From the NCBI GenBank assembly GCA_020833025.1, contig JAJHRB010000007.1, positions 1 to 36,318 on the forward strand: a stretch of DNA of 36,318 nt, given 5' to 3'. A model generated the notes under the pieces. That model did no database searches. It was not told the DNA's origin and saw only the letters and a program-made list of their open reading frames with translations. Position 1 is the stretch's first letter. Each line of letters begins with the position of its first letter. Source of the stretch: Thermoproteaceae archaeon. GTDB taxonomy: Archaea; Thermoproteota; Thermoprotei; Thermoproteales; Thermoproteaceae. The translations under genes were made by a program, and so were the position numbers. Below, piece after piece: positions 8,157-36,318 of the stretch.

Positions 8157-8819
8157 ATGGCAAGGGGGCCGAGGTACAGGGTTCTCTTCAGGAGGAGAAG
8201 GCTCGGCCTGACAAATTACAGCAAGCGGCGCAAGCTTCTCCTCTCTAAAAAGCCCAGGCTTGTCGTGAGGAAGACGAACAAATACATTATCGCGCAGATC
8301 GTCGTCGCAAGGCCTGAGGGCGACGTTACCGTGGTCGGCGTTGACACCAGAGCGCTCGCAAGATTCGGGTGGAGGGGCGACGAGAACAACACCCCGGCGG
8401 CTTACCTGCTCGGGCTAGTTGCCGGCTATAAGGCGAGGCTCCGCGGCGTGACTGAGGCAATAATTGATATCGGGCTCCACAGACCCGCGAGAGGCGCTAG
8501 AGTCTTCGCGGTGCTGAAGGGGGCTGCGGATGCCGGGCTCAAGATACCGTATAGCGAGGAGGTAATACCGAGCGAGAGCAGAATTCGCGGCGAGCATATT
8601 GCAGCATACGCAAAGAAATTGAAAGAGGCAAGCCCCGAGCTATACAACGCCAGGTTCTCGCGGTACCTGCAGCGCGGACTGCCCCCCGAGGAGCTCGCCA
8701 GGCACTTCGAGGAGACAAAGAAGAAAATTATCGAGTACTACGAGCAGAAGCTCGCCAAGCCTGCCCCCTCCAGCCCCAGTCCTGCCTCCGGGAGCGCGGC
8801 AGGGCAGGGCAGCGCTTGA
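8157..8819 (+). CDS. rpl18: 50S ribosomal protein uL18 (L18/L5e)
   Basis: [17 protein letters not shown]...RLVVRKTN...[10 protein letters not shown]...RIRGEHIA. Confidence 0.95.
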
Positions 8820-8966: not shown

Positions 8967-8980
8967 CGAAAGTTTTAAAT
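8967..8980 (+). promoter_or_regulatory. BRE + TATA box driving the tRNA 5' piece at 9003
   Basis: CGAAAG-TTTTAAAT, with TATA ~29 nt upstream of tRNA G1. Confidence 0.75.
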
Positions 8981-9002
8981 AGCCGCAGCCTAATAGCCGC
9001 AA

Positions 9003-9056
9003 GCCCCGGTAGCTCAGCCCGGTCGGAGCGCCCAGGCAGCCCCGCCGGGCCGCCGC
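9003..9056 (+). tRNA. tRNA 5' fragment (positions 1 to ~29, Thr-like) with GC-rich trailer; candidate split tRNA piece
   Basis: GCCCCGG-TA-GCTC-AGCCCGGTCG-GAGC-G-CCC gives the acceptor 5' strand and a complete D arm; no T-loop or CCGGGGC downstream; trailer AGGCAGCCCCGCCGGGCCGCCGC then pyrimidine tract. Confidence 0.75.
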
Positions 9057-9538
9057 ACTCCCAGTCCTCCTCTCGAGCCGCTCCCAAGGGGCCGGTCTCC
9101 ACGGAGGGCGCAGAGAAGCCGGAGCGAGAGTGCGCGGCTGAGCGTATTCGGCCCCTCAGGGTATCGGCGCGGCGCGTCAGCGTGTCATTCAAGCGCGTTG
9201 CGGCCTCGCTGAGCTGCGGCGCCGCCCGGAAAAGCTCGGCCAATTAAGGCCGGCCGCGATGTAGCGCGCCCACCATATCTGCCACTATGCCGGCGCTTAC
9301 ACCGCCGGCCTGCGGGCAGGAAGCATGGCTGCGAGAAGGGATCCCGACATGCCGATTACCGCGTCGAGAGCGCCCACTAGCGCAGGTCGCGCCCAGAATC
9401 CTCCCCTCCTTTAGCCGCTCTCAGCTGGCGCGGTGTCTCCTGGCGGCCCCGCTGCAAACAGCCCTAACGCTAGCGTGGCTGGCGCCGGCAGCAACGCGAG
9501 TGCACGCTGTTTGCGAATATCCCGGCGTTGCGCGAAAT

Positions 9539-12615: not shown

Positions 12616-12732
12616 TGGTGGACCGGCCGGGATTCGAACCCGGGATCGCCCGCGCTCTCGGGCGTATTGTGGCACGCCGCGCCAAGCGGGCATCCTTCCG
12701 CTAGACTCGGCGGTCTCGATCTCTACCGGCCC
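12616..12732 (-). tRNA. tRNA-Ala(GGC) with two introns (17 nt at 10/11, 12706-12722; 25 nt at 37/38, 12655-12679); CCA encoded
   Basis: Removing both introns gives 75-nt GGGCCGGTAGTCTAGCGGAAGGATGCCCGCTTGGCGCGCGGGCGATCCCGGGTTCGAATCCCGGCCGGTCCACCA, a full cloverleaf with G3-U70; TTTAAA at 12764-12769. Confidence 0.93.
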
Positions 12733-15454: not shown

Positions 15455-15515
15455 CGGCTCAGCCCTCCAGGTGTGCGTCATCGTGTCGGGCGTCCCGACG
15501 GCCCTCATCACGGCA
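15455..15515 (-). ncRNA. C/D-box sRNA, targets unassigned
   Basis: Minus strand: box C GTGATGA 15511-15505, D' CCGA 15489-15486, C' CGATGA 15483-15478, D CTGA 15462-15459; two 15-nt guides. Confidence 0.8.
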
Positions 15516-22644: not shown

Positions 22645-22660
22645 ACTAAAAATTTAAAAA
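22645..22660 (+). promoter_or_regulatory. BRE + TATA box of the tRNA-Leu 3' piece
   Basis: ACTAAAAA-TTTAAAAA; spacing as at the 9003 promoter predicts a start near 22681. Confidence 0.7.
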
Positions 22661-22680
22661 TGCGCGGGAAGAGAGGTCCC

Positions 22681-22788
22681 ACCAGCCGCCGCCCGCCCGA
22701 CTCAAGGGGCAGGGCTCTCGGCTGCAGGCCGGCCCACAAGACCCTGTGGCGTAGGCCTGCGTGGGTTCAAATCCCACCCCCCGCACCA
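22681..22788 (+). tRNA. tRNA-Leu(CAA) 3' piece (positions 22-76) with 5' leader and 20-nt intron at 34/35 (22718-22737); candidate split tRNA
   Basis: AGGGG-CAGGG-CTC[intron]AAGA-CCCTG-TGGCGTAGGCCTGC-GTGGG-TTCAAAT-CCCAC-CCCCCGC-A-CCA; the required GCGGGGG acceptor strand and D-arm 5' side are absent in cis. Confidence 0.88.
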
Positions 22789-25633: not shown

Positions 25634-25814
25634 TATGGTCAATGAGCTCGTGAGGCGCGGGGTGTATCCCAGCAGGAGCGAGGCCGTGAGGGCTGCAATC
25701 CGCGAGCTGCTCAGCAAGTACAGGCCGGAGACTGCCGGCGGGCGGCCGGGCGCCCCCTCGGATGGGTCGCCCCCTTCGCCCCCTCCCCGCCCTCTGCCTA
25801 GAGCTGATGAGTAA
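25572..25814 (+). CDS. Ribbon-helix-helix (CopG/NikR-like) protein
   Basis: LVSFHAP...VNELVRRGVYPSRSEAVRAAIRELL; own TATA TTTAAAT at ~25546. Confidence 0.85.
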   Translation: MSRKRERMVLVSFHAPQTYIDMVNELVRRGVYPSRSEAVRAAIRELLSKYRPETAGGRPGAPSDGSPPSPPPRPLPRADE

Positions 25815-26159
25815 CTAGACAGCAGACTGCTGATGAGCTGACGACGAGCTGACCCCTCCCCTCATCTGGGAGAGCTTCTTACTGATCTCATCCAGTAGCT
25901 GCTCTCTCGTCTTGCCCTCAACGGGTATGCCGAGGGCCCTCGCCATTTCGAGAACCTTGTTGTCCGGCTCCTCCCGTCTCTCGGCGGCCCTCTTCTCCTC
26001 CCTCTCCCCCGCGCCGGAGACTGCCTTTCTGAACTCCCTGATCGCCTCGCCCACGCCTCTTGCGAGAGACGGCAGCTTAGTCGGGCCCCATATCAGCAGG
26101 ATTACTATAGCTATGAGCACGATTATCCACTCTTGCCCGCCGAGCCACAGATACATCAT
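25815..26159 (-). CDS. tatA: Twin-arginine translocase TatA/E
   Basis: GGQEWIIVLIAIVILLIWGPTKLPSLARGVGEAIREFRKA. Confidence 0.93.
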   Translation of the reverse strand: MMYLWLGGQEWIIVLIAIVILLIWGPTKLPSLARGVGEAIREFRKAVSGAGEREEKRAAERREEPDNKVLEMARALGIPVEGKTREQLLDEISKKLSQMRGGVSSSSAHQQSAV

Positions 26160-35922: not shown

Positions 35923-36318
35923 CTAGGGCAGGAGCCGGAGCGTAAAGTAGGCCGCCGCGTAGGCCCAGTAGCCCAGCGCGATAAGCAGCACGTACGGCAC
36001 GCCGTACCTTGCCTTCACCCACTCTGCGTCTACTCTGACGCTCCTGGGGTCGTAGCGCTCCACGTCTCTCACGCTGCCGACGATGTACTTTAGCGGGCTC
36101 CTCGCGAGCTCCTCGCGCGAGACGCAGACGTGCGTGAGCATCTCAAAGGCGGTCATGCGGCAGGGCCTCCCGCGGTTCGTCACGTAGAGCCTCAGCATTA
36201 TTGCCGGCAGGGCCGCGCTACCGGCTGCAACCGCAATGAAGGCTGCTGGCAGCGAGCACACGGGCGGGGCCGCGCTGACGGCGGCCAGCGCGATTGAGTC
36301 CGCGTAGCCGGCGCCGAG
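35923..36318 (-). CDS. A24-family prepilin/preflagellin peptidase-like protein, C-terminal part
   Basis: Frame open to window edge: LGAGYADSIALAA (GxD motif) and C-terminal YGVPYVLLIALGY. Confidence 0.6.
   Translation of the reverse strand, partial: LGAGYADSIALAAVSAAPPVCSLPAAFIAVAAGSAALPAIMLRLYVTNRGRPCRMTAFEMLTHVCVSREELARSPLKYIVGSVRDVERYDPRSVRVDAEWVKARYGVPYVLLIALGYWAYAAAYFTLRLLP

Follow-up and report, generated by a model that had tools for sequence, protein, structure and literature searches.

Here we describe what is very probably the working 5′ half of a trans-spliced, or split, transfer RNA for threonine (tRNA-Thr) in an archaeon of the family Thermoproteaceae. The half lies at positions 9003-9033 of contig JAJHRB010000007.1 (assembly GCA_020833025.1; C34 in what follows), which was analysed whole, at 36,318 nucleotides (nt), and is called the window, while its putative partners lie on two other contigs, C88 and C91, and carry the anticodons UGU and CGU. 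That this single 5′ half is common to both isoacceptors is also likely, at a somewhat lower level of confidence. Whether the halves of tRNAs represent an ancestral or a derived state is debated, and split tRNAs are central to that debate; the genus Pyrobaculum is known for its many tRNA introns. The nearest named relative of the L18 protein encoded beside the half comes from a Pyrobaculum metagenome-assembled genome (73% identity), and we infer that the host is a divergent Pyrobaculum-like species. Its assembly is a short-read metagenome bin of 126 contigs and 1.56 Mb, with a guanine-cytosine (GC) content of 62.6%, an estimated completeness of 93.9% and an estimated contamination of 0. With standard detectors the genome yields no more than about 20-23 tRNAs, none of them a tRNA-Thr, a result that would look like an absence of essential genes.

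On the plus strand, where all features of the locus lie, a B recognition element (BRE)-like GAAAG at 8968-8972, part of an archaeal promoter, is followed by a TATA box, TTTTAAATA, at 8973-8981 and by a 21-nt spacer at 8982-9002 that ends directly before the first base of the tRNA. All three are read directly from the sequence, and a similar TATA box at a similar spacing precedes the orthologous Thr genes of congeners. The exon at 9003-9033 is recognised by its identity to the exons of relatives and comprises tRNA positions 1-29, which occupy 31 nt because of two extra nucleotides in the D loop. It contains the acceptor strand GCCCCGG, U8 and A9, the D stem GCTC/GAGC, a GG in the D loop and G26, and it closes with C27, C28 and C29 at 9031-9033; at A9034 the tRNA pattern ends. 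After the exon come AGGCAGCCCCGCCGGGCCGCCGC, a GC-rich trailer, and a pyrimidine-rich tract at about 9058-9074. The trailer divides into a strand predicted to pair with the leaders of the partners (9035-9051) and a remainder that holds the tract (9052-9075) and is delimited from the sequence only. An earlier note on this DNA, made from its letters alone, had read a promoter-driven tRNA 5′ piece whose pattern stops between positions 28 and 31, with neither a T arm nor a CCGGGGC strand after it. Every part of that claim stands: the promoter motif at 8968-8981 leads to a tRNA start at G9003, the pattern gives way after C29 to trailer and tract, and no T arm or CCGGGGC-N-CCA is found 3′ of the piece on the plus strand of the contig.

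The resemblance to a tRNA gene goes beyond chance. When the upstream regions of 19 tRNA 5′ ends in the genome were compared by eye, the 21-nt distance between TATA box and +1 proved to be the same as at cis tRNA genes (for example C12:492 and C89:52603), and a TATA box that typically ends 21 nt before +1 would be consistent with leaderless transcription. The 31-nt exon is identical to the tRNA-Thr(UGU/CGU) 5′ exon at most loci read in relatives, and exon and promoter are unchanged although the adjoining proteins are only about 65-80% identical to those of congeners. ARAGORN and Rfam scans of the window made no call at this locus, a silence that is expected of a fragment of only 31 nt and is therefore uninformative. 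Two ordinary arrangements were considered and rejected. A cis-spliced gene with an intron at 29/30 would need a 3′ exon, and there is none anywhere on the 36-kb contig; between 9034 and 9600, moreover, there is no decayed remnant of one, the local alignment score being 25, while stretches taken at random from the contig give 23.6 +/- 6.7. For a permuted tRNA, the upstream side is taken up by the L18 gene, which ends at 8819, and then the promoter, and no T arm or CCGGGGC strand lies upstream.

The missing part of the molecule was sought over the whole assembly with a regular expression for the acceptor 3′ strand CCGGGGC-N-CCA and with fuzzy searches, which return exactly two matching Thr 3′ pieces that lack positions 1-29, and one matching 5′ exon. 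The first 3′ piece, at C88:12883-12962, carries the UGU anticodon in the loop CTTGTAA, and the second, at C91:16936-17014, carries CGU in the loop CTCGTAA. Both cover tRNA positions 30-76, encode the CCA end and have a BRE/TATA motif upstream; at the level of sequence, the motifs at all three pieces are predicted to be promoters of their own. Each 3′ piece also contains two cis introns, one of 15 nt at 37/38 and one of 17-18 nt at 53/54, between T stem and T loop, and the same three cis-intron positions occur within one gene of a relative from the same family (L006). Given the 21-nt spacing at cis tRNA genes, the leaders of the 3′ pieces are predicted to be about 21 nt long, laid out as 15 helix nucleotides, GCGC and two further nucleotides. 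The two leader stretches, aligned by eye, agree in 18 of 21 positions and the 37/38 intron is identical, so that the pieces appear to be close paralogues, as the two Thr genes within related genomes likewise are.

Once the exons are joined and the cis introns removed, ARAGORN folds canonical Thr(tgt) and Thr(cgt), and the CGU product is identical in 78 of 78 positions to the intronless tRNA-Thr(CGU) gene of a relative in the same order (L017). The earlier note had guessed the Thr identity that these products bear out, and it had predicted a partner built of a complementary leader, GCGC, two nucleotides, an anticodon arm, a T arm and CCGGGGC-N-CCA, which is present twice, on C88 and C91. It had also named a full tRNA set with no 3′ partner as the state that would speak against a split gene; the genome shows the opposite, with both partners present and intact genes for Thr(UGU) and Thr(CGU) missing from the 93.9%-complete assembly. 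The three pieces are physically apart, the 5′ exon lying inside C34 with 27 kb of other genes downstream and the 3′ pieces inside C88 and C91. ACA and ACG codons both occur in the adjoining ribosomal protein genes.

If the pieces are to be joined in trans, then their ends should be able to form the structure that a splicing endonuclease cuts. RNAduplex, run without constraints on the 3′ part of the 5′ piece and each leader region, yields a bulge-helix-bulge geometry, and together with constrained cofolding it places the elements as follows. The strand G24 C25 G26 C27 (GCGC, 9028-9031, plus strand) forms a central helix of 4 base pairs (bp) with the GCGC at the 3′ end of the leader. Next to it, C28 C29 A (9032-9034, plus strand) forms a 3-nt bulge with a predicted cut at 9033/9034, which matches the boundary of the cis intron in relatives. 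Opposite this CC/A bulge, where the slash marks the cut, the leader side contributes the 3-nt bulges AA/G in C88 (UGU) and AG/G in C91 (CGU). The predicted cuts, C29/A and A/G30, give a junction at 29/30, as the anticodon stem CCCGC/GCGGG requires and in agreement with the junction at about 29/30 that had been proposed beforehand. Beyond the bulges, the plus-strand trailer segment 9035-9051 can form a helix with the first 15 nt of either leader. With C88 the pairing runs to 3+10+2 bp, with two single-nucleotide bulges in the trailer and all 15 helix nucleotides used; with C91 it comprises 14 bp across the 15 helix nucleotides, with one mismatch and one bulge. The anchored pairing energies are −42.3 kcal/mol for C88 and −35.0 kcal/mol for C91.

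Several observations weigh against a working split gene, and most of them concern this pairing. In a 63% GC genome plain complementarity is weak evidence: a BLAST search of the genome with the reverse-complemented trailer returns many equally good short GC-rich matches and does not single out the leaders, and mononucleotide shuffles of long leader regions give z scores of only about −1 to −3. The exon-side outer helix has only 2 bp, which makes the motif a relaxed one. The unconstrained minimum-energy cofold of the full transcripts retains the acceptor stem and in no case contains the central helix of 4 bp. For the C88 pair it preserves the trailer/leader helix with a 5′ transcript that ends at 9052 or 9056 but not at 9062, and for the C91 pair the helix is kept only at 9052 and lost at 9056 and 9062. 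The fold constrained to the motif lies 3.5 (C88) and 6.7 (C91) kcal/mol above a minimum of about −100 kcal/mol. Neither an oligo-T run nor any other recognisable terminator is seen after the trailer, and the missing part of the 126-contig assembly could hold a second 5′ half or an intact Thr gene. As to what the cofolds form instead, the GC-rich 3′ part of the leader pairs elsewhere in the 3′ piece (in C88 with the 37/38 intron), and early unconstrained cofolds with over-long assumed leaders were dominated by alternative GC pairings.

Because plain complementarity says so little in such a genome, we used an anchored test, in which the central helix and the bulges were held fixed and the leader was swapped for random genomic segments. 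The 15-nt segment of C88 does better than 6000 of 6000 random genomic 15-mers (P < 1/6000), and that of C91 reaches P = 0.0017; when 36-nt leaders are used, each real leader falls in about the best 1% of random 36-mers (P ~0.01 each). A third Thr gene of the genome, Thr(GGU) on C74, which is described below, allowed trailers and leaders to be crossed. With the trailer of the window, the free-energy difference (ddG) is −7.4 kcal/mol for the C88 leader, −8.6 for the C91 leader and +1.2 for the Thr(GGU) leader. With the GGU trailer it is −7.3 kcal/mol for that gene's own leader, +5.3 for the C88 leader and −3.8 for the C91 leader. The cross test thus favours the cognate trailer/leader pairs.

The pairing also bears on whether the 5′ half is shared. 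It is conceivable, if unlikely, that the gene is split but that this half serves only one of the 3′ pieces, with a second 5′ half lying in the 6% of the genome that is missing from the assembly. In each relative the Thr(UGU/CGU) genes come as a complete pair, which implies two ancestral 5′ exons, the C91 leader with its one mismatch pairs less well than that of C88, and the assembly is incomplete. Yet the two leaders are nearly the same, both use the 15 helix nucleotides, and each pairs far above chance; a fuzzy search of the whole assembly finds no other copy of the 5′ exon within 4 mismatches; and common constitutive halves are the rule in known sets of split-tRNA isoacceptors (PMC4390854).

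A half common to both isoacceptors would work as follows. Transcription from the BRE/TATA motif at 8968-8981, starting at or next to G9003, would produce exon 1-29 with its GC-rich trailer, and transcription on C88 and C91 would produce a leader of about 21 nt followed by positions 30-76 with two cis introns. The trailer segment 9035-9051 would then anneal to the 15-nt 5′ part of either leader, and G24-C27 would pair with the GCGC of the leader, so that a bulge-helix-bulge forms with the bulges CC/A and AA/G (UGU) or AG/G (CGU). The splicing endonuclease would cut both bulges and RtcB would join C29 to G30, and with removal of the two cis introns the products would be complete tRNA-Thr(UGU) and tRNA-Thr(CGU). 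Genes for these enzymes are in the assembly. The catalytic subunit of the splicing endonuclease, EndA, is encoded at C61:40093-40611, and a second EndA-like frame at C29:11828-12046 gives a weak match (19 bits, E = 0.0015) that would fit the short structural subunit found in crenarchaeal heterotetramers; a two-subunit form of the endonuclease is likely on these matches. An RtcB gene lies on C60, where, as a side observation, the match at C60:4614-7331 falls into two segments of one open frame of 961 amino acids, which suggests a large insertion, possibly an intein.

Could the joint between exon and trailer be a product of assembly, a chimeric join at repeated tRNA exons? The data are a short-read metagenome bin in 126 contigs, and the Thr genes share identical exons of 31-45 nt that may confuse assemblers. 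We nevertheless regard an artefact as extremely improbable. All three pieces are internal to their contigs, the 5′ piece having 9 kb of sequence on one side and 27 kb on the other, and a chimera cannot create a correctly spaced TATA box or an in-register complementarity of leader and trailer between contigs. A second assembly repeats both the joint of the 5′ piece and that of C88. In this ENA assembly, which may derive from the same reads, a contig of 36,584 nt (against 36,318 nt) repeats the context of the 5′ piece with 1 mismatch in 6663 nt (99.985%), and the C88 promoter, leader and exon are reproduced inside a 78-kb contig. The surroundings of the C88 piece, at least, are also represented in sequencing run SRR25522564. 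An exact 23-mer scan of metagenome contigs for the joint of exon and trailer gave no match; such a scan may leave out near-identical records.

Relatives indicate what the gene probably looked like before the proposed split. A BLAST search of the locus against 40 relatives, with a same-genus set of 17 species, gave tRNA-level matches in all of them, and 21 Thr(UGU/CGU) loci from 19 genomes, 12 same-genus, were read (loci L002-L027). All 21 are contiguous. One (L017) is intronless and one (L026) has an intron in the D arm, and the rest, including one cut by a contig end, have a cis intron at 29/30 that typically starts with AGGGGC, is closed by a short hairpin and in most cases ends with GCGN-NN/G. 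The other 61 genomes of the order do not contain the trailer sequence of the window. In six congeners the genes L32e-L19e-L18 are followed about 185 nt downstream by tRNA-Thr, and the piece in the window stands at this same position; downstream of the Thr gene synteny is not conserved even among those congeners, and the flanks of the C88 and C91 pieces share no synteny with any of the Thr loci of relatives. From the contiguous genes with a cis intron at 29/30 and the L18 synteny, we infer that the split arrangement is recent and derived. A cis-spliced Thr gene downstream of L18 would have been broken within its 29/30 intron, its 5′ exon would have stayed at the old locus with the old promoter, and its 3′ parts would have turned into independent units with new promoters. 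The direction of change can be read directly here, since every contiguous Thr gene read in congeners is interrupted by a cis intron just where the break lies and the 5′ piece remains at the ancestral locus with the ancestral promoter.

The same synteny could be read in another way, in which a rearrangement or the insertion of a mobile element in the 29/30 intron left a dead stub beside L18 and the functional Thr genes lie elsewhere. Genes for tRNAs are hot spots of rearrangement and integration (PMC3218864, PMC3293823), synteny on the downstream side ends precisely at the Thr gene, and the genome also contains Ser 3′ fragments that resemble integration duplicates (C12:11399, C17:69). A stranded remnant is nonetheless very unlikely to be what the window holds. 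Intact Thr(UGU) and Thr(CGU) genes are missing from the assembly, as is any other 5′ exon, and its sole pieces with these anticodons lack positions 1-29 and come with promoters and with leaders in register for this very trailer. Exon and promoter have stayed constant beside proteins that have diverged, and no integrase or other mobile-element gene is found among the genes neighbouring any of the three pieces on C34, C88 and C91. A simple integration scar, that is, an attachment-site (att) duplication, was rejected on similar grounds: the assembly lacks both an intact Thr(UGU/CGU) gene and a further copy of the exon, and the neighbouring genes include no integrase. In one relative, G012, a degenerate Thr 5′ exon (GCCCCAGTAGCTCAGCCCGGTCGGAGCGTGCAG...) without a 3′ part lies at L010:867, 636 nt upstream of the intact Thr(UGU) gene of that genome; this copy is probably a stranded remnant.

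Turning from the Thr(UGU/CGU) pair to the rest of the tRNA set, a rough census of the genome was made for 3′ pieces without an acceptor partner in cis and for 5′ pieces that bear a promoter. It lists further orphan 3′ pieces for Leu (CAA, TAG, GAG), Gln (TTG, CTG), Asn, Trp, Lys TTT, Arg TCT and a CAT tRNA. Promoter-bearing 5′ pieces that end near 29-31 and run into GC-rich trailers lie at C46:7391 (−), C89:28993 (−), C100:10465 (+), C20:13302 (−) and C31:372 (−), and matching orphan 3′ pieces on other contigs are those of Arg TCT, a CAT tRNA, Trp, Lys TTT, Asn and Gln. The census suggests a genome-wide splitting of tRNA genes. An extended reading, for and against which the chances seem to us about even, is that in this one Pyrobaculum-like species more than 10 tRNA genes have recently come to be split into halves with promoters of their own (Thr x3, Leu x3, Gln x2, Asn, Trp, Lys, Arg and a CAU tRNA), mostly at former cis-intron sites around 21/22 and 29-31, that the halves are reused combinatorially, with one Thr 5′ half for two isoacceptors, and that Thr(GGU) on C74 is an intermediate. 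If the candidates hold, this would be the most fragmented tRNA set known.

The tRNA-Thr(GGU) gene itself lies at C74:17519-17829 (L030), where a 5′ exon with a trailer and a leader with the 3′ part are 196 nt apart. Between the parts is a BRE/TATA-like motif, trailer and leader are complementary (ddG −7.3 kcal/mol), and there is one cis intron beside the anticodon and another in the T loop. The arrangement resembles a transitional form on the way from a cis intron to a split gene, with its parts in tandem and possibly transcribed separately, a stage at which the intron would have gained an internal promoter before the halves separate.

The window itself contains a further orphan, a promoter-bearing tRNA-Leu(CAA) 3′ piece at about 22645-22788 (+) that ends in CCCCCGC-A-CCA and has no upstream GCGGGGG 5′ strand; at C89:48568 and C102:3234 there are two further Leu 3′ pieces that likewise lack a partner in cis. 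The Thr 5′ piece had been taken to belong to a different split tRNA from this Leu piece, with a trailer that does not match the Leu leader, and the distinction is borne out: the Leu acceptor strand CCCCCGC (3′ end at 22788) differs, and the Leu leader region pairs less well with the trailer, at −25.7 kcal/mol, against −34.0 and −36.2 kcal/mol for the partner leaders.

Other tRNA-like sequences are of different kinds. At 12616-12732 (−) of the window lies an intron-containing tRNA with an encoded CCA and introns in the D arm and beside the anticodon loop, most likely tRNA-Ala(GGC); ARAGORN miscalls it as Ser(aga), and Rfam matches it only through its transfer-messenger RNA (tmRNA) model (E = 2.3e-6). 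At C89:50115 (−) (L095), a promoter-like motif is followed by GCCCCGGTAGCAC AGCCCGG..., with the same acceptor strand as Thr; this stub has no D-stem partner, no tRNA continuation and no Rfam match. Duplicated tRNA-Ser 3′ fragments at C12:11399, C17:69 and C78:4323 run from the anticodon arm onward without a leader motif and look like att duplicates or contig-end repeats rather than split halves. The window also gives two sub-threshold matches to archaeal C/D box small RNAs, one at 25800-25854 (+) (sR5/sR3, E = 0.014-0.033) with clear C, D′, C′ and D box-like motifs and one at 15457-15515 (−) (sR28, E = 2.4).

Split tRNAs are an established but rare kind of gene. They have been described in Nanoarchaeum equitans, Caldivirga maquilingensis and four Desulfurococcales, and a review of 2014 counted 29 split genes for 12 anticodons in seven genomes (PMC4033280). 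Constitutive halves that are shared among synonymous isoacceptors are likewise established (PMC4033280, PMC4390854), and a recent, derived split with synteny ending inside the gene has been reported for tRNA-Asp (PMC3218864). None of the five Pyrobaculum genomes in that survey of 2011 had trans-spliced tRNAs (PMC3218864). Neither a split tRNA-Thr nor any split tRNA from Pyrobaculum came to light in the literature covered, which is incomplete, and a search within PMC4390854 brought up no passage on a split tRNA-Thr. A split tRNA-Thr and a Pyrobaculum-like host would be new, in the sense that we have not found either reported.

The split tRNA-Glu of N. equitans (Randau et al. 2005, via PMC4033280) resembles the present case in its separate loci, in GC-rich complementary leader and trailer sequences that anneal, in a relaxed bulge-helix-bulge at the junction that is processed by the splicing endonuclease (here predicted from the sequence), and in one constitutive half for two synonymous isoacceptors. 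In N. equitans, however, one 3′ half is shared between two 5′ halves, whereas here the 5′ half would be the shared one and the alternative pieces carry the anticodon. The present tRNA also differs in being Thr, in its junction at 29/30 and in the two cis introns of its alternative pieces, and its host is a crenarchaeon of free-living type with an assembly of 1.6 Mb. C. maquilingensis (Fujishima et al. 2009; PMC4033280, PMC4390854) belongs to the same order, Thermoproteales, and combines constitutive pieces with alternative anticodon-bearing ones into synonymous tRNAs, with junctions at common intron positions. Unlike our host it belongs to another family and genus, and the reviews name tri-split and split Gly tRNAs for Caldivirga; what sets the present case apart is that the ancestral cis-intron form is found in every congener gene read and that the 5′ piece is still at its ancestral locus. 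The tRNA-Asp(GUC) of Aeropyrum pernix and Thermosphaera aggregans (Chan, Cozen and Lowe 2011, PMC3218864) is, as ours appears to be, a derived split whose pieces have their own promoters; in those species the halves adjoin, whereas here they sit on separate contigs, with a distance of 27 kb or more on the side of the 5′ piece, and one 5′ half fits two 3′ halves.

A further comparison is with the cis-spliced Thr(UGU/CGU) genes of Pyrobaculum and related genera (L002-L027), which have the same exons, the same 29/30 position, the same GCGN-NN/G design of the 3′ junction, the same promoter and the same L18 neighbourhood. The intron of the relatives is closed in cis, over 16-40 nt, by a short hairpin that typically takes the form GGGGC-loop-GCCCC, while in the present genome the 3′ part is absent from the locus and the hairpin appears to have been replaced by an intermolecular helix of 14-15 bp. 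Such a replacement of an intron hairpin by an intermolecular helix would be clean evidence for a route that leads from an intron to a split gene.

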